A stretch of DNA of 64,000 nt, from NCBI GenBank assembly GCA_001791305.1, contig MGEI01000004.1:129804-193803 (forward strand), written 5' to 3'. The stretch is from Candidatus Uhrbacteria bacterium RIFCSPLOWO2_01_FULL_47_17 (GTDB lineage Bacteria > Patescibacteriota > Patescibacteriia > UBA9934 > GWF2-40-263). Positions 4,665-52,367 of the stretch are shown one piece after another (position 1 is the stretch's first letter; each line of letters starts with the position of its first letter). The notes beneath the pieces are model-generated. The model had not been told where the DNA came from. It searched no databases and was given only the letters and a program-made list of their open reading frames with translations. Both the position numbers and the translations under genes were made by a program.

Positions 4665-6014
4665 ATGGTGAAACGAATTGTTCGTAAATTTGTTCCGGAA
4701 TCCCTTATAAATCGCTATCATTACGTCCTTGCACGAGCGGCGGCTGTTTTGTATCGTCATCCTTCAAATGAGCTTGTGGTGATTGGAGTGACTGGAACAA
4801 ATGGAAAATCATCCACAACCGAGTTTATTGGTCGCATGCTTGAACATGCCGGTGCGCGCGTTGGTTGGACCGGAACCGCGAGTTTTAAGATTGCGGAGCT
4901 TGAATGGACGAATGATCAAAAGATGACCATGCTCGGGCGATTCAAAACGCAAAAAATATTGCGTGACATGGTTAAAGCTGGTTGCACCTACGCCATCATC
5001 GAAACATCTTCGCAAGGGATTTCGCAATCGCGTCATGTTGGCATCAACTATGATGTTGTCGTTTTTACCAATCTCACCCCAGAACACATTGAAGCGCATG
5101 GCGGATTCGAAAATTATAAACACGCAAAGAAACAATTATTTGTTCACACAAAACATTCACGTCGCAAAAAAATTCAAGGACACGTGTTTGAGAAGACAGC
5201 TGTTGTGAACATGATGAGTCCTTATGCATCTGAGTTTCTTGCGGTCGGTCTTGATCGCTCGTTTGGGTTTGGGATCGATGGACTTATCTTTGAACCAACT
5301 GAAGAGCGTCCATTATCCATTGTGCCGGTCCTTGCGGAGGATGTTGTCTACGCACCAGATTCCATCGGGTTTGTTCTGAATCGGTTGCATTTTGACATTC
5401 CACTCGTCGGGCGATTTTATTTAGAGAATGTTCTCGCAGCGATTTCTGTCTGTCGTGCACTGGGGCTCGACTGGGAGGCGATTCGAGACGCTGTTGCACA
5501 TCTCGAAACAATCCCTGGCCGATTCGAGCGTATCGAAGAAGGTCAGTCTTTCTCGGTTGTGGTGGATTATGCGTATGAACCCGCAGCCCTAAATGCGATT
5601 TACGACACGGTCAAACTCTTCGCCCATAAAAAGATCATTCACGTGGTCGGCTCGGCCGGTGGAGGTCGTGATGTAGCTCGACGCGCCATTCTTGGACGCA
5701 TGAGTGCGGAAATGGATGATGTGGTGATTGTTACAAATGAAGATCCGTATGACGATGATCCACAAATGATTATTGACCAGGTTGCCGACGCGGCAGTGGA
5801 AGCAGGAAAAAAAGAGGGGATTGATTTGTTTCGTGTGCTTGATCGTGGTGAGGCGATTGAAAAGGCTGTTATGCTCGCGATGCCGGGAGATCTCGTGCTC
5901 ATTACAGGAAAAGGATGTGAACCGGTTATGGCGGTCGCAGATGGAAAAAAGATTCCGTGGGATGATCGCGTTGCTGCGCGCAACGCCTTACACAAGCGTT
6001 TACAAGCCGTATGA
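4665..6014 (+). CDS. murE: Mur ligase family protein, MurE-like (UDP-MurNAc-tripeptide synthetase)
   Basis: VIGVTGTNGKSSTTEF P-loop, ETSSQGISQ, TNLTPEHIEAHGGFENYKHAKKQLF motifs; short N-terminus; TAGAAT 4650-4655 just upstream of ATG 4665. Confidence 0.7.
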   Translation: MVKRIVRKFVPESLINRYHYVLARAAAVLYRHPSNELVVIGVTGTNGKSSTTEFIGRMLEHAGARVGWTGTASFKIAELEWTNDQKMTMLGRFKTQKILRDMVKAGCTYAIIETSSQGISQSRHVGINYDVVVFTNLTPEHIEAHGGFENYKHAKKQLFVHTKHSRRKKIQGHVFEKTAVVNMMSPYASEFLAVGLDRSFGFGIDGLIFEPTEERPLSIVPVLAEDVVYAPDSIGFVLNRLHFDIPLVGRFYLENVLAAISVCRALGLDWEAIRDAVAHLETIPGRFERIEEGQSFSVVVDYAYEPAALNAIYDTVKLFAHKKIIHVVGSAGGGRDVARRAILGRMSAEMDDVVIVTNEDPYDDDPQMIIDQVADAAVEAGKKEGIDLFRVLDRGEAIEKAVMLAMPGDLVLITGKGCEPVMAVADGKKIPWDDRVAARNALHKRLQAV

Positions 6015-45690: not shown

Positions 45691-46596
45691 ATGATTCCAG
45701 GGTTTTTAATATCACTGCTCACATTTCCAGGTGTGGTTTTACATGAATTCGCTCATAAGAAATTTTGTGATTTGTTTAATGTAAAAGTTTTAAAGGTAAA
45801 TTACCTTACCTTGTCTGGTGACGGCTATGTTATTCATGAGAAGCCAAAAGACTTTAAATCAACCTTTTGGATTTCGGTGGGTCCATTAATTTTAAACTCT
45901 GTCTCTTGTTTTGTTTTGGGATTGATCACCGCATCACAAATTCTCCACGCCGGTGCTTTGTACTATTTAGCAGGCTGGCTAGCGATTTCATTCGGCGCAC
46001 ACTCCTTTCCAAGCAACCACGATGTCGAACATATCCTTAAGGAAAGCAAGAACAGAATCCAGAATAATGAAAGTTTTTTGCATTATCTTTCATACCCATT
46101 TGTCGGTCTTATAAAAATCGCTAATTTGTTACGATTTTTTTGGATTGATTTTTTGTGGGCGTTCTTGTTGATTGGATTTGCTTTTAACATTTTTAATCAA
46201 AACGTTTTTGCACAAGATTCAACACAAAAGAATAAAGCAGAACGACCTTCTGATACTTTGGTTGTTGGAGATTATTATTGTTCACGATTCCACGCTTCTG
46301 AATCAGAAAAGATTGATCCGATTAATAAAGAAGAGGTGAAAATGTTAGAAAATGAACTAATGGCCGATAATCTATACCTGGAGACACTCGCTAGCGAAAT
46401 CAAGAATATGCATGTAGATGAATACTCACAAGAGTCGATAGATAGATATAAGTTAAAAGTGAATTATTATGATCAAAAATTTGAAGAATATAACGATGCC
46501 TACTCGCTGTATTCATTCAAACGTGCTCTCTATAATGAGATGGCAGAAAAGTATAATAACTACCTTAAAGAGAATTGTGAAATGAGAAGTAATTAA
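45691..46596 (+). CDS. putative membrane-embedded zinc metalloprotease (HExxH; DUF3267-like)
   Basis: TATAAT 45651-45656 upstream; N-terminal LHEFAHKKF (HExxH) within a multi-TM region, soluble C-terminal half. Confidence 0.5.
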   Translation: MIPGFLISLLTFPGVVLHEFAHKKFCDLFNVKVLKVNYLTLSGDGYVIHEKPKDFKSTFWISVGPLILNSVSCFVLGLITASQILHAGALYYLAGWLAISFGAHSFPSNHDVEHILKESKNRIQNNESFLHYLSYPFVGLIKIANLLRFFWIDFLWAFLLIGFAFNIFNQNVFAQDSTQKNKAERPSDTLVVGDYYCSRFHASESEKIDPINKEEVKMLENELMADNLYLETLASEIKNMHVDEYSQESIDRYKLKVNYYDQKFEEYNDAYSLYSFKRALYNEMAEKYNNYLKENCEMRSN

Positions 46597-46697
46597 AGTT
46601 TCGAGTTGGTAAAAGAACCGTTTCTCCTCTAGATTTAGATGAGATCTGAAAAACTTATGGTCATATGACTCTAATTAGCTCATATTAGTTGAATTAT

Positions 46698-47162
46698 ATG
46701 CAAAAACTATTCATCTTACTTATAGTGGGACTGTTTTTAATGGTTGCTGTTCCAAGTCCTTCATTAGCGGTAAGTGTAAAAGGTTACTATAAAAAGAATG
46801 GCACTTATGTAGCACCCTATGTTCGAAGTAGTCCTAATGGTCTGAAATACGATAATTATGGCTATAAACCATCCCAAGGACTCTATAACAAGACATATGG
46901 AACAAATGGGTCTTATTGGAATACTCCTTCATATATCACTGATCCAAATTACTACAAAGAAAAAAGCTTTTATGATTCGAAGTCTGTAAGCTTGCCGTCT
47001 TATTCAACTTACGCAGCTCCGAGCTACAAGGCTGCTCCTATATATAAAGCACCAGTTTATTTGGCTCCAATCAATGTAAAATCATACAAAGATTGTACTA
47101 AAGGATTTGGTTATTCCTATATCATAAAAGATTGTATAGCTTTAGCACCAGGTTCGTTTTAA
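46698..47162 (+). CDS. secreted Tyr/Lys-rich hypothetical protein
   Basis: Signal peptide LFILLIVGLFLMVAVPSPSLA; repetitive Y/K/P-rich mature region with two Cys near the C-terminus. Confidence 0.45.
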   Translation: MQKLFILLIVGLFLMVAVPSPSLAVSVKGYYKKNGTYVAPYVRSSPNGLKYDNYGYKPSQGLYNKTYGTNGSYWNTPSYITDPNYYKEKSFYDSKSVSLPSYSTYAAPSYKAAPIYKAPVYLAPINVKSYKDCTKGFGYSYIIKDCIALAPGSF

Positions 47163-47181
47163 AATCATTTCAGAATTCCAT

Positions 47182-47210
47182 TTGACTAAACACTTAATTT
47201 CACCTATACT
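47182..47210 (+). promoter_or_regulatory. near-consensus sigma-70 promoter TTGACT-17-TATACT
   Basis: Hexamers 47182-47187 and 47205-47210. Confidence 0.55.
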
Positions 47211-47216
47211 TTAGGA

Positions 47217-47400
47217 GTAAAAGTGAAGAGGTAAGTTTGTGACCCTCACAAACCCCGCATCGTTCCCGTAAGGGTAGGTCATCAGGGAAATCTGCTGATG
47301 ACCACATACAATGCGCGGACTAACTGCAAAAGCGGTTGGGAGATTTCATCCAGTGTCGACTGGGTCAAACCTCCTGATCGCTTTTTACGTTTATTTATAA
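47217..47400 (+). ncRNA. candidate structured leader / small RNA (about 180 nt) between the promoter and the HD-hydrolase gene
   Basis: No ORF; stable hairpins TTTGTGA-CCC-TCACAAA, GGTCATCAG-GGAAATCTG-CTGATGACC (9 bp) and CCAGT-GTCG-ACTGG; 5' GGAGTAAAAGTGA and 3' CCTCCTGATCGCTTTTTAC could close a terminal helix. Confidence 0.3.
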
Positions 47401-47412
47401 CGATTAAAACTT

Positions 47413-47982
47413 ATGACTTTAGAAGAAGCATACGAACAATTTGAGAGACTCAACCCCCTCGCCGAGGCGTTGGTGATGAACAAGATTAAGGGCACACGTA
47501 AAGGTTTGCCAGACGAGAAGAATTATAAACATTCATTGCGAGTTCAGAAGCTCGTCATGGACTGCCATCACTGGGACGACCCCGATCATGACGTTTTTTT
47601 GGCCGCTATTTTGCATGATGTGATCGAGGATGGTGGTGTGACATTTGATGAGTTAAGAGCGAATGGTTTTTCAGAACGAACAATTGAGCTTGTGCAACTC
47701 TGCACTCACCAGCTGGATGTTGAAAATAAGACAGAACGATGGGTACTCATGATCGCAAAGTTGATCGAGGCAAGAGATGAGGATGCGTGGCGTATCAAGC
47801 TCGCTGATCTTACAGATAATCTGAAACAATCTCGAGGTCTTACAGTCGAGAATCGAAACTTTATGGTTGAGGTAAAAGCACCTCTGATGTTGCGCCTGAC
47901 TGAGCAATATATCTTCATTGGGAAAGCGTGGGGTACGTTAGTGGAGGAAATGGAGAAACAACACAAAGACATGATTGCTTGA
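47413..47982 (+). CDS. HD-domain (p)ppGpp hydrolase-like protein (small alarmone hydrolase, SpoT/Mesh1-type)
   Basis: H...HD motif (SLRVQKLV ... AAILHDVIEDGG) and KLADLTDNL, matching the RelA/SpoT hydrolase HD fold; 189 aa, no synthetase domain. Confidence 0.65.
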   Translation: MTLEEAYEQFERLNPLAEALVMNKIKGTRKGLPDEKNYKHSLRVQKLVMDCHHWDDPDHDVFLAAILHDVIEDGGVTFDELRANGFSERTIELVQLCTHQLDVENKTERWVLMIAKLIEARDEDAWRIKLADLTDNLKQSRGLTVENRNFMVEVKAPLMLRLTEQYIFIGKAWGTLVEEMEKQHKDMIA

Positions 47983-48151
47983 TTTTCTAGTGCAACACAT
48001 AACGATTGATTGGTTGAGAAAAACTCGATACAGCTATGTGCATCAATGGGATCACTAAACACAATCTTTCACCGTAAGCTTTGGTATCGAAATATAACCA
48101 TCATGCGCCTCAATCGCGGTTCTTACTTCCTCGATGATGCGGAGCCATACA

Positions 48152-48183
48152 AAAAACCCCAGCTTTACGTTGGGGTTTTTTGT
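48152..48183 (+). terminator. intrinsic terminator
   Basis: aaaaaacccca-gctttacgt-tggggtttttt. Confidence 0.65.
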
Positions 48184-48234
48184 TTATACCCAAGTAGAGG
48201 CGTGAACTGGTATACTAAATAGGGTATTTATTTC

Positions 48235-48906
48235 ATGATTGGATTCAACAGAAACGTAATGTCATCTATGAAAAATTTTGCACGGCATAAAACAACCCGG
48301 TTGTCTGTGTTGTTGGCAATGACACTTTTATTATTCGTGTTATTGTTGGGTATCCTTCTTGGTTTCACCTACCAGAAAATTGCACATGACAAGAAGATCG
48401 CCGCATTTCCCGCTAATGTTCCTTCGATCGCTTCGTCTTTCGTACAAGATGAAACAACAATTACAGACAATGATATTCCACAATCTTTTCTTCAGGCGAA
48501 GTATCGTGTGTTAGGGGTTTATACGAGTGGAAAAGACAAAGATATTAAAAATCTGGCAAACCAAGTTGCTTTAGTTGTTGCGAATGAAAATAATACTGAT
48601 TACGGGAATGACGATCTTTGCGGTTCCATGTATTCACCGTTGGTTTGTTATTTCTTTATCCAACCACTTTATGTTTTTGGGGCTCCAGATGCCGACAGAT
48701 ATCTAGGAAAGTTAGACGGTCAAGGGGCTTTTAATCCCGGGACATTAAAATTTATAGATCCGGATAAGGTAGAGTTTCAAACCGCTGATGGCGATGCGGG
48801 CTATAGCATGACGAAAACTTGGGAGCTGAATCTGACGAGTGGAAAATTCACTTTACTTGATACAGAGACGATTGAGCCCGAGACGTTTGAAGCAAAAAAT
48901 GATTGA
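48235..48906 (+). CDS. membrane-anchored hypothetical protein (223 aa)
   Basis: TATACT 48211-48216 upstream; N-terminal TM (LSVLLAMTLLLFVLLLGILLGF); no known domain. Confidence 0.45.
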   Translation: MIGFNRNVMSSMKNFARHKTTRLSVLLAMTLLLFVLLLGILLGFTYQKIAHDKKIAAFPANVPSIASSFVQDETTITDNDIPQSFLQAKYRVLGVYTSGKDKDIKNLANQVALVVANENNTDYGNDDLCGSMYSPLVCYFFIQPLYVFGAPDADRYLGKLDGQGAFNPGTLKFIDPDKVEFQTADGDAGYSMTKTWELNLTSGKFTLLDTETIEPETFEAKND

Positions 48907-50309: not shown

Positions 50310-50780
50310 TTGCCATCAAAATTTCTTATTATGCAAACTGAACACTACCGCAGTCTTGTCGCCGTCTATGTCATGGCAGTTAACGATCGCGAAGAGATTC
50401 TTTTGCTCCGACGCGCCAATACCGGCTATCGCGATGGTTTTTATGATATGCCTGCTGGGCATCTTGAAGAAGGAGAAACATTACGGCAGGCAGCTTTGCG
50501 TGAACTCAAAGAGGAAACAGGGCTCGTTGTGTCTGAGGATCAGCTCGAATTCATGGAGCTTCTTCATCGCATGTCTGGTGATCGCGTTTATTTAGATGTA
50601 TTTTTCGAAGTGAAACAGTGGAATGGCGAAGCTTGTATTATGGAACCAGAAAAGTGCGACCATCTTGCATGGTTTCCCCTCGGGTCACTTCCGGAAAATA
50701 TTGTTCCACATCAACACCAGGTTCTTCAAGACAGATCTGAACAATGTGCCTATCGCGAGATTTGGGAAAGCATTGTCTGA
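50310..50780 (+). CDS. NUDIX hydrolase
   Basis: Nudix box AGHLEEGETLRQAALRELKEETGL (GX5EX7REUXEEXGU). Confidence 0.75.
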   Translation: MPSKFLIMQTEHYRSLVAVYVMAVNDREEILLLRRANTGYRDGFYDMPAGHLEEGETLRQAALRELKEETGLVVSEDQLEFMELLHRMSGDRVYLDVFFEVKQWNGEACIMEPEKCDHLAWFPLGSLPENIVPHQHQVLQDRSEQCAYREIWESIV

Positions 50781-51147: not shown

Positions 51148-51639
51148 ATGCAAAAAACAAAAACAGCCATTTTTGCCGGAGGGTGTTTTTGGGGAATGGA
51201 AGAGTTGTTTCGAGCGCGACCAGGAGTGATCGAAACGGAAGTGGGATACACGGGTGGGGAGAATGAGCGTCCGACGTATGAAAATCATCCTGGACATGCG
51301 GAAGCGATTCGGATTGAGTATGATCCGAGCATGACATCATATCGCGAACTGTTGGACTTCTTTTTTCAGATGCACGACCCGACAACAAAAAATCGTCAAG
51401 GGAATGATGTCGGTACGTCCTATCGTTCCTCGATTTTTTATGCGACGGACGAGGAAAAGAATGAAGCGCAAGAATTTATCGACCTCGTAAATGCTTCTCA
51501 TCGATGGCCAAATCCAGTCGTGACAACTCTCGAACCTCTCAAGGAATTTTATCCCGCCGAGTCTTCGCATCAAGATTATCTCCAAAAAAATCCGCATGGG
51601 TACACGTGTCACCGCATCCGATTCGGAAGTTACCTTTGA
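51148..51639 (+). CDS. msrA: peptide methionine sulfoxide reductase MsrA
   Basis: Active-site GGCFWG motif ([13 protein letters not shown]) and overall MsrA length; AAAGGG SD then ATG 51148. Confidence 0.85.
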
Positions 51640-51671
51640 TTTTTTATCTAACATCGATCGACGATCTTTTT

Positions 51672-52367
51672 ATGGAACGCCCGCGCTTTGAGATCATGGT
51701 GAATACTCGACCAAAAGAACAAAAAGAAAAAGAAGAACTTCCAAAAATTGGGAGTATGAAAGAATTTTTGATGCGTTTGAGAGAGGTTTGCCCAGATATT
51801 TCTGACGCGGAGATCGCGAGTTTTAAGATGGCGAAACCTCTGTTTAAAGGGCTGTCTCCGGAAAAGCGCGTGCATGCGAGGAATGTTTCGCTTCGTGTTG
51901 CTCGGATGTTGCCTGAACATCAGGTGATTCTTGGCGCGCTTCTTCACGACACACAAGAACAAATTCCAAAAGAGTATTTGGCCCTCAAAAAAGAATTGCC
52001 ACAGACAGTTGCGGATCTTGTGGATGCATTATCGGAAGATGCATCTCATGTAGAAGGGGAAGAGAATGCACCGTTTGCACACTTGAAGGCCGTACTTCCA
52101 ACACTCTCGTCAGAGTTCAGAAATCGTGTGATTCTCATTAAGCTTGCGGATCGACTGGATAATTTACAAAAGAGACGTCAGGACGGAAAGATTCCAAAAG
52201 GGTATCGAAAAAAATCAAAAGAATTGATCGCGTATCTTGAATCCGAGTTTCGTCCCAATGAATCCGATCCTCTCAACGAGCTTGTTTTTCGTCGGGTAAA
52301 AAATGAACTCGCGCAATTGTTGACGCCAACCAAAGAACACAAAGAACGATTCAAAGAAGCTGCATAA
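51672..52367 (+). CDS. HD-domain (p)ppGpp hydrolase-like protein, second copy (SpoT-type HD fold)
   Basis: LGALLHDTQEQ and IKLADRLDNLQK motifs; ATG 51672 in frame with track ORF 51504. Confidence 0.55.
   Translation: MERPRFEIMVNTRPKEQKEKEELPKIGSMKEFLMRLREVCPDISDAEIASFKMAKPLFKGLSPEKRVHARNVSLRVARMLPEHQVILGALLHDTQEQIPKEYLALKKELPQTVADLVDALSEDASHVEGEENAPFAHLKAVLPTLSSEFRNRVILIKLADRLDNLQKRRQDGKIPKGYRKKSKELIAYLESEFRPNESDPLNELVFRRVKNELAQLLTPTKEHKERFKEAA

Follow-up and report, generated by a model that had tools for sequence, protein, structure and literature searches.

The DNA analyzed here, a 64,000-nucleotide (nt) stretch of Candidatus Uhrbacteria bacterium RIFCSPLOWO2_01_FULL_47_17 (hereafter, the window), contains a structured RNA of ~170 nt at ~47217-47386 that ends 27 nt before a gene for a RelA/SpoT-type HD hydrolase. 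Comparative analysis indicates that this leader is a real, conserved, folded RNA motif. We consider it fairly likely that it represents a conserved cis-regulatory RNA class, an orphan ON riboswitch candidate for HD_4 alarmone-hydrolase-type genes in the Candidate Phyla Radiation (CPR)/Patescibacteria. A sequence-only reading of the same DNA had proposed that the leader could act in cis on an alarmone-metabolism gene, as a riboswitch or attenuator with a promoter of its own. That proposal is strongly supported by conservation of the leader, by covariation, by a link to one gene class, and by a predicted terminator that overlaps the conserved core.

Conservation of the leader

The leader folds far more stably than expected from its composition. 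The 201 nt from position 47215 have a predicted folding energy of −71.5 kcal/mol (z = −5.05), and none of 200 dinucleotide shuffles was as good, in agreement with the earlier description of a highly structured leader. The perfect 9-bp hairpin noted at that time (GGTCATCAG/CTGATGACC) is located at 47277-47285 and 47295-47303.

Homologous leaders were sought by nhmmer and blastn in the loci of HD-protein homologues, with one genome taken per Genome Taxonomy Database (GTDB) species. The leader was found directly upstream of the HD gene in 27 further species genomes, whose HD proteins were just 43%–80% identical. These genomes are labeled as Uhrbacteria, Magasanikbacteria, Paceibacterota, or "Patescibacteria group", and some are automatically labeled metagenome-assembled genomes. 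Their leaders share three near-invariant blocks, namely UAGGC..CAG-GGAAAUCUG-CUG..GCC, GACUAAC, and GCGGUUGGGAGAUUUCAU. Scanning metagenome contigs with an exact pattern joining two of the blocks gave at least 119 loci, and the same pattern matched a single contig (L207) in IMG/VR. Together, these searches yielded at least 132 distinct leader sequences at <96% identity, all on CPR/Patescibacteria-type contigs, in which ~50 leader bases are invariant or nearly so. A lack of homologues or of covariation had been named as a result that would refute the sequence-only reading; the analysis clearly gave the opposite, a large family with extensive covariation.

Within the window, a covariance model of the leader found a single copy (47223-47388, 143 bits) and no second one, including upstream of another HD_4 gene at 51504. 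With search filters off, no divergent copies were found upstream of other CPR HD genes. We also found no published description of the leader or of its conserved sequence strings in a full-text literature search, the coverage of which excluded subscription journals.

The leader had been described as free of open reading frames (ORFs). This holds across the family and fails for the window itself, where a mechanically called 48-amino acid (aa) ORF (47298-47444) overlaps the leader. No ORF is conserved among the homologues, in which the longest ORF has a median length of 24 codons, and the lengths of the homologous RNAs (159–231 nt) show no 3-nt periodicity. Attenuation by a leader peptide was rejected on this ground. 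A suggested pairing between the 5' and 3' ends (GUAAAAG with the U-run in the window) did not survive comparison either, as mean complementarity across homologues was 4.27 versus 4.15 ± 0.08 with permuted partners.

Consensus structure

The conserved fold and its flanking signals comprise the following elements, all on the + strand:

47182-47210: sigma-70-type promoter, with −35 TTGACT at 47182-47187, a 17-nt spacer, and −10 TATACT at 47205-47210
47228-47253: 5' domain, hairpin P1, with stem 47235-47241/47247-47253 and loop 47242-47246
47229-47231 with 47244-47246: pseudoknot PK1, AGG (possibly also G47228) with the P1 loop CCU (possibly also C47247)
47254-47318: three-way junction, in which P2 (47254-47263 with 47308-47318) closes P2a and P2b
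47265-47274 and 47277-47303: hairpins P2a and P2b, the latter with loop GGAAAUCUG at 47286-47294
47318-47337: linker GACUAAC (47318-47324) and hairpin P3, AACUGC (47322-47327) with GCGGUU (47332-47337)
47287-47347: proposed pseudoknot PK2, P2b loop GAAAUCU (47287-47293) with AGAUUUC (47341-47347) inside the terminator 5' strand
47332-47386: predicted intrinsic terminator, a 20-pair hairpin (47332-47381) followed by a U-run (47382-47386)

A consensus from RNAalifold on a structure-blind MAFFT alignment gave P2, P2a, P2b, and the long 3' hairpin, to which P1 was added. Across this alignment, 93.4% of cells were paired, compared with 80.5% in shuffles and 37%–46% with slid partners. Changes on both sides of the pair were seen for 27 of 45 pairs, and none of 500 shuffles matched the observed values. 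We then used a covariance model built from this alignment to align 100 sequences, including 99 from metagenomes that had played no part in model building. In this larger set 95.6% of cells were paired, with both-side changes at 31 pairs.

Support extends to the individual helices. All five modeled pairs of P1 change on both sides, and the helix is 95.9% paired in the 100 sequences. Both-side changes occur at 10 of 10 pairs in P2, 3 of 3 in P2a, and 6 of 7 in P2b (MAFFT alignment and the 100 sequences). The junction bases U/A47275-47276, A47304, and A47306 are invariant or nearly so. For PK1, the longest Watson-Crick run joining the 5' tail to the loop of the same sequence averaged 3.31, compared with 2.77 ± 0.08 for loops taken from other sequences, and covarying examples include CUG/CAG, GUG/CAC, AAGG/CCUU, and UACC/GGUA. 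Ahead of PK1, we also noted a UUnAcAAU box (GUGAAGAG in the lineage of the window) at model positions 1-8, within 47217-47231 of the window.

Predicted terminator and proposed alternative pairing

The hairpin at the 3' end of the leader has the features of a strong intrinsic terminator, with a predicted energy of −31.2 kcal/mol (z = −6.3). A simple terminator scanner missed it because of two internal mismatches. The hairpin and U-run, directly 3' of the presumed sensor, were kept in all 100 aligned sequences; the hairpin was 95.6% paired with both-side changes at seven pairs, and the U-run was at least 90% conserved. The two strands of the hairpin evolve differently. The 5' strand is near-invariant, while the 3' strand drifts through G·U pairs and mismatches, and ten pairs vary on one side only. 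This asymmetry suggests that the 5' strand of the terminator has a second role.

P3 and PK2 are candidates for that role. The 3' strand of P3 consists of the first six bases of the terminator 5' strand, and P3 is predicted in a fold that omits the terminator 3' strand. Its pairing amounts to 97.4% on the unbiased MAFFT alignment, where two pairs change on both sides, and to 91.6% in the 100 sequences; insertions in L031 and L023 extend or keep the hairpin. Both segments of PK2 are invariant or nearly so and complementary at seven of seven positions, whereas a run of at least seven is reached in ~1% of shuffled loops. P3 and PK2 cover 13 nt of the terminator 5' strand, and jointly they are 98.5% paired in the MAFFT alignment, compared with 30%–58% in slid controls.

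One position of PK2 varies informatively. It is mostly A-U, with G·U in L009 and two metagenome sequences and G-C in L043 and L208, the latter recovered through relatives of the L043 protein as one more member of the variant lineage. In L043 and L208, a U-to-C change in the shared strand is matched by an A-to-G change in the loop, and the terminator partner becomes a C·U mismatch. In L208, P3 reads AACUAU/AUAGUU and the terminator 3' strand reads AACUAU, a three-way covariation of the shared strand. From these patterns we infer that PK2 forms. Since P3 and PK2 would use the terminator 5' strand, the aptamer and the terminator are predicted to be mutually exclusive.

We considered another partner for AGAUUUC, the conserved 5' box UUGAAAAU, which pairs with it in the aptamer-only fold of the window. 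Common variants of the box, such as UUAACAAU, do not pair, and this candidate was rejected. A separate box, (C)AAAGGUCG(A), lies 5–40 nt past the U-run in L011, L012 (~1385-1400), L017, L022, L027, L028, L036, L037, L043, and L208 and is absent from the window. Its GGUCG could pair with CGACU of the GACUAAC linker, but not in all sequences.

Promoter and predicted transcription start

The promoter described in the sequence-only reading, TTGACT-17-TATACT at 47182-47210, is present, with 10 of 12 consensus bases, and is the sole + strand match within 46500-48300. One such match is not above chance, since two were found in that interval against 4.9 expected. The promoter is credible because a −10 box is kept upstream of the RNA in most homologues scanned, often as TGnTATAAT, 9–15 nt 5' of the start of the RNA model, and not by virtue of the single match. 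A conserved GUA after the −10 box in homologues marks the predicted start. By this comparison, the promoter is a conserved part of the leader unit.

Transcription is predicted to start at ~47217 (range 47216-47218), ~7 nt past the −10 box. This start lies 196 nt before the ATG of the HD gene, close to the ~195 nt estimated earlier. A TTGACA-like box at the start of the RNA model was considered as a −35 element and rejected. P1 and PK1 downstream of it covary and so must be transcribed, and its spacing to any −10-like sequence is too long.

Association with HD hydrolase genes

The gene downstream of the leader in the window is as follows:

47413-47982, + strand: predicted regulated gene, encoding a 189-aa stand-alone RelA/SpoT-type HD hydrolase domain (Pfam, TIGR, and profile matches)

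Pfam HD_4 matched this protein at E = 1.8e-5 (25.0 bits, slightly below the cut-off of 27.2), Pfam HD also matched weakly, and the hydrolase part of TIGR00691 (spoT_relA) gave a partial match with E = 7.9e-11. Among solved structures, a profile of the protein family matched Mesh1 (3nqw, E = 3e-9; Drosophila and human Mesh1), hydrolase domains of Rel/SpoT, and the (p)ppApp hydrolase 7smg. Positions that vary little or not at all within the family include the metal-binding and catalytic residues H40, H68-D69, E72-D73, D132, and D135-N136. The protein thus has an HD_4-type domain with the H...HD...ED...D..N motifs of small alarmone hydrolases and has no synthetase domain. By homology, it consists of a hydrolase domain alone and is of the small-alarmone-hydrolase type, with a predicted substrate. 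The earlier description of a SpoT-type hydrolase gene is therefore fair at the family level, given the Mesh1 and Rel/SpoT matches.

The link between the leader and this gene class extends across the family. Among the metagenome loci listed, at least 700 nt of sequence follow the RNA in 100; these and the following neighbor counts refer to the matches listed. An HD-family gene on the same strand lies within 1.5 kb in 81 of the 100, usually 10–130 nt after the RNA. Pfam HD_4 is by far the commonest family, accounting for 42 of 108 first ORFs and 17 of 117 genes in positions 2–4. The RNA-linked HD proteins are mostly 16%–30% identical to that of the window, with a minority at 38%–65%. Such divergence argues that the gene link does not merely reflect shared recent ancestry, and on this basis we interpret the link as old and functional. 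The leader therefore holds a constant sense position, 5' of one gene class, across divergent organisms, as expected of a riboswitch.

Some arrangements vary on this theme. In some loci a small ORF separates the RNA from the HD gene; in others the HD domain carries a fused N-terminal domain of ~95 aa. We noted a domain of ~100 aa with a motif like ...Y.V.VDD.FH....E.Y..G.F.S.EEA...C..., either fused to the N terminus of the HD domain or encoded as a separate small ORF (L043 1219-1500 and the first ORFs of L108, L130, and L136). A histidine phosphatase (His_Phos_1) stands behind the RNA in two loci and was the only other recurring enzyme. In one locus, the HD_4 domain is fused to a Zeta-toxin-like P-loop kinase domain. 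The histidine phosphatase and HD_4-kinase fusion loci, taken together, are:

L193, 244-858
L144, second ORF
L164, second ORF

Comparison with known RNA families

Searches of Rfam 15 did not place the leader in any family. At gathering thresholds over the whole window, the leader had no match. At E ≤ 10 with permissive filters over 47100-47500, only chance-level matches appeared (RT-14, with 16 bits where the threshold is 48 bits, and a plant microRNA). At E ≤ 1, none of 14 homologous leaders matched any family. These searches covered the two specific guesses of the sequence-only reading, a ykkC subtype and a 6S-like RNA, neither of which held. Neither the leader nor the 14 homologues matched the ykkC-type models (guanidine-I, ppGpp, and phosphoribosyl pyrophosphate [PRPP] subtypes). 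For 6S RNA, the absence of a match is joined by a covariation-backed fold that is multi-branched, with P1, a three-way junction, pseudoknots, and a terminator, rather than a rod with a bubble. T-box and cyclic di-GMP (c-di-GMP) models also gave no match.

Proposed mechanism and alternative explanations

The overlap between the sensor and the terminator suggests how the leader could work. Transcription would start at ~47217, and the first ~130 nt would fold as a sensor made of PK1 and P1, the three-way junction of P2, P2a, and P2b, P3, and PK2. P3 and PK2 would occupy the 13 bases shared with the 5' strand of the terminator (47332-47381 plus UUUUU). If no signal is present, the far more stable terminator would win, releasing a transcript of ~170 nt. 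If the sensor is stabilized, for which binding of a small molecule is the likeliest cause, P3 and PK2 would hold the terminator 5' strand, the terminator would be blocked, and RNA polymerase would read into the hydrolase gene. The leader would thus act as a kinetically driven ON switch.

The leader's presumed small-molecule ligand may be related to the activity of the enzyme. The linked enzymes are Mesh1/SpoT-type pyrophosphohydrolases and occasionally histidine phosphatases, which makes a phosphorylated nucleotide destined for degradation a natural guess. The most plausible ligand would be the substrate of the enzyme or a relative of it, perhaps an alarmone-type, 3'-pyrophosphorylated nucleotide such as (p)ppGpp, pGpp, or (p)ppApp. 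More speculatively, the leader could be the first riboswitch class specific to CPR/Patescibacteria, sensing a signaling nucleotide that no known natural riboswitch recognizes (such as (p)ppApp or pGpp) or a defense- or toxin-derived nucleotide and switching on a detoxifying alarmone hydrolase. We put this forward as a tentative possibility and would not expect it to hold in full.

Several observations weigh against the proposed ON riboswitch for alarmone hydrolase genes. Nineteen of the 100 loci with sufficient downstream sequence have no recognizable HD gene downstream. No alarmone synthetase was seen among the genes neighboring RNA-linked HD genes, and many neighbors encode restriction-modification, Fic, or antitoxin proteins. 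The HD-less loci and the defense- and toxin-type neighbors suggest that the signal might be unrelated to classical stringent control. Other points concern the alternative pairing. Variation in P3 is largely one-sided wobble, and covariation of PK2 is thin, resting on one compensated position in one lineage, in which the adjacent PK2 pair is a G·A mismatch. The metagenome set was chosen by a pattern that fixes both strands of PK2 and so cannot test it. The transcription start, finally, is a prediction.

Given the defense-rich neighborhoods and a copy of the leader on a viral-class contig, the signal could conceivably be a toxin- or defense-related nucleotide or a macromolecular effector. In the latter case the leader would be an attenuator, in which an RNA-binding protein (possibly the hydrolase or a CPR-specific factor) or a tRNA stabilizes the antiterminator. 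The fold, terminator, and alternative pairing would suit any antitermination factor equally, and toxin-antitoxin- or defense-like genes are frequent neighbors. The bulge of the T-box pairs with the 3' end of tRNA, and an invariant single-stranded UUGGG adjoining the shared strand loosely resembles this bulge. Hydrolases related to those encoded here reverse the pyrophosphorylation of tRNA 3' ends made by toxic synthetases. However, the leader has no T-box match even at E ≤ 10 and no long element like Stem I, and no RNA-binding protein gene is consistently linked among the neighbors examined. Its invariant bases cluster in the junctions and loops of a compact two-pseudoknot fold, which is typical of metabolite aptamers. 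We therefore consider a macromolecular effector unlikely.

Polarity could also be the reverse of that proposed, with a ligand-bound form that includes or favors the terminator and with P3 and PK2 forming in the free RNA only. The terminator (−31.2 kcal/mol) is far more stable than P3 plus a 7-bp, A/U-rich PK2, and the scarcity of covariation in PK2 is compatible with such an OFF switch. Yet the near-invariant bases are found in the terminator 5' strand and the P2b loop and not in the terminator 3' strand, and the L043/L208 lineage compensates the pseudoknot pair while losing the terminator pair. Induction of a degrading enzyme by its substrate would also be the simpler logic. An OFF switch thus seems quite improbable to us, and we infer ON polarity.

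Under a further explanation, the RNA would come from a separate small RNA gene of a 6S-like or trans-acting kind, equipped with its own promoter and terminator, and its place upstream of the HD gene would be incidental. The conserved promoter and strong predicted terminator would fit such a gene, and a terminated product of ~170 nt is expected regardless of the explanation. The fixed sense position directly before HD genes whose products are mostly so divergent argues against it, as does the lack of an evident promoter for the HD gene alone in the 27 nt that separate the U-run from the ATG. For a stand-alone 6S gene in particular, the downstream HD-family gene on the same strand at 81 of 100 loci was taken as grounds for rejection; no 6S or other small RNA family matched, and the multi-branched fold is unlike the 6S rod. 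We regard an independent small RNA as very unlikely. A divergent ykkC-subtype riboswitch for ppGpp or PRPP shares only the functional theme of an alarmone-related gene downstream and has next to no chance of being correct: as far as sequence and structure models go, the empty Rfam searches and the supported helices, which differ from the ykkC layout, already refute it.

Comparison with characterized regulators

The proposed ON riboswitch resembles several characterized regulators in part. The ppGpp riboswitch (ykkC 2a) and its PRPP sibling (2b) are likewise leaders tied to alarmone or nucleotide-pyrophosphate metabolism, and they use an intrinsic terminator, generally as ON switches, the polarity that we propose here. 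In contrast with these classes, the new leader has different helices and conserved bases and matches neither covariance model. The ppGpp class controls genes for amino acid biosynthesis and transport in Firmicutes, whereas the new leader precedes the hydrolase gene itself, in CPR bacteria. The c-di-GMP riboswitches I and II offer a parallel in which a sensor of a signaling nucleotide controls the enzymes that make or destroy it, as proposed here, and class II also relies on a pseudoknot. Their fold is different, their models do not match, and the enzyme here is of the RelA/SpoT HD_4 type rather than EAL or HD-GYP.

In its mechanics, the proposed switch resembles the pbuE adenine riboswitch of the purine class, which has a three-way-junction aptamer whose 3' part overlaps the 5' strand of a more stable terminator, an arrangement also predicted for the new leader. 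The pbuE riboswitch is a kinetically driven ON switch, in which ligand binding during transcription prevents termination. It has no sequence or model similarity to the new leader, which is much larger and has a 5' pseudoknot domain. The shared strand is held by helix P1 in pbuE, compared with the proposed pairing of a loop with the 3' tail in PK2, together with P3, in the new leader. T-box leaders also pit a terminator against an antiterminator, which share a highly conserved 5' strand, but the new leader totals ~170 nt, lacks Stem I or specifier architecture, and matches no T-box model. 6S RNA is similar in length (~170–180 nt) and in having its own promoter and terminator, but the new leader is branched, without the central bubble of the 6S rod, and is cis-linked to HD genes. 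On these comparisons the leader belongs to none of these families, and we rate it as a new class of a known type of regulator.

New ligands and new biology have repeatedly emerged from riboswitch classes that combine a clear gene link with many diverse members. The present candidate offers at least 132 distinct members, a complex fold with a three-way junction and two pseudoknots (one of them proposed), a readable expression platform, and an almost exclusive tie to a single enzyme family. Much of bacterial diversity falls within the CPR/Patescibacteria, most members of which are uncultured and for which very few regulators are known. Identification of the ligand would reveal what CPR cells monitor and would give a functional handle on orphan small alarmone hydrolases, and the leader could serve as a native inducible element for emerging CPR genetics. 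A CPR-specific nucleotide riboswitch, if real, would point to alarmone-type signaling, possibly linked to toxins or phage defense, in bacteria with minimal regulatory repertoires. The question is of interest to both the riboswitch and CPR fields and can be approached with synthetic RNA and commercial nucleotides.

Genomic neighborhood

Genes near the motif in the metagenome loci (L088-L206 and L209) often encode restriction-modification proteins, Fic/DOC, SocA/Panacea antitoxin, Bro-N, RadC, or HNH proteins, which suggests that leader neighborhoods are variable or mobile genome regions. The viral-class contig from IMG/VR (L207) carries one leader copy at 4876-5058 on the − strand, with no HD gene downstream. 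L043 has a SAM-I riboswitch (2155-2312; 46.3 bits against a gathering score of 44.4 bits) shortly after its HD gene, which indicates that at least some classical riboswitches occur in these CPR-like genomes.

In the window, a NUDIX hydrolase gene (50310-50780) and a second HD_4/SpoT-type gene (51504-52367, 287 aa) lie 2–4 kb past the regulated gene. The NUDIX and HD genes form a cluster of nucleotide-pyrophosphate hydrolases, in which the second HD gene has no leader RNA. Upstream, a 371-aa ORF (42128-43243) resembles PRPP synthetase (ribose-phosphate diphosphokinase; TIGR01251, 98 bits against a cut-off of 113) and may have diverged from that family or been repurposed. Between this ORF and the leader is a tRNA gene split in its anticodon loop by a group I intron (43625-43978, core 43660-43929; Rfam 73 bits over the full-length model). 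ARAGORN missed this tRNA in unspliced form, and all trial splices gave a tRNA at 43625-43978 with the acceptor TCCGAGG...CCTCGGA-G-CCA. Its anticodon depends on the exact junction and reads GUG (His) when the junction lies close to the Rfam boundaries. The intron-split tRNA is followed, after 66 nt, by an HNH endonuclease ORF (44044-44607).

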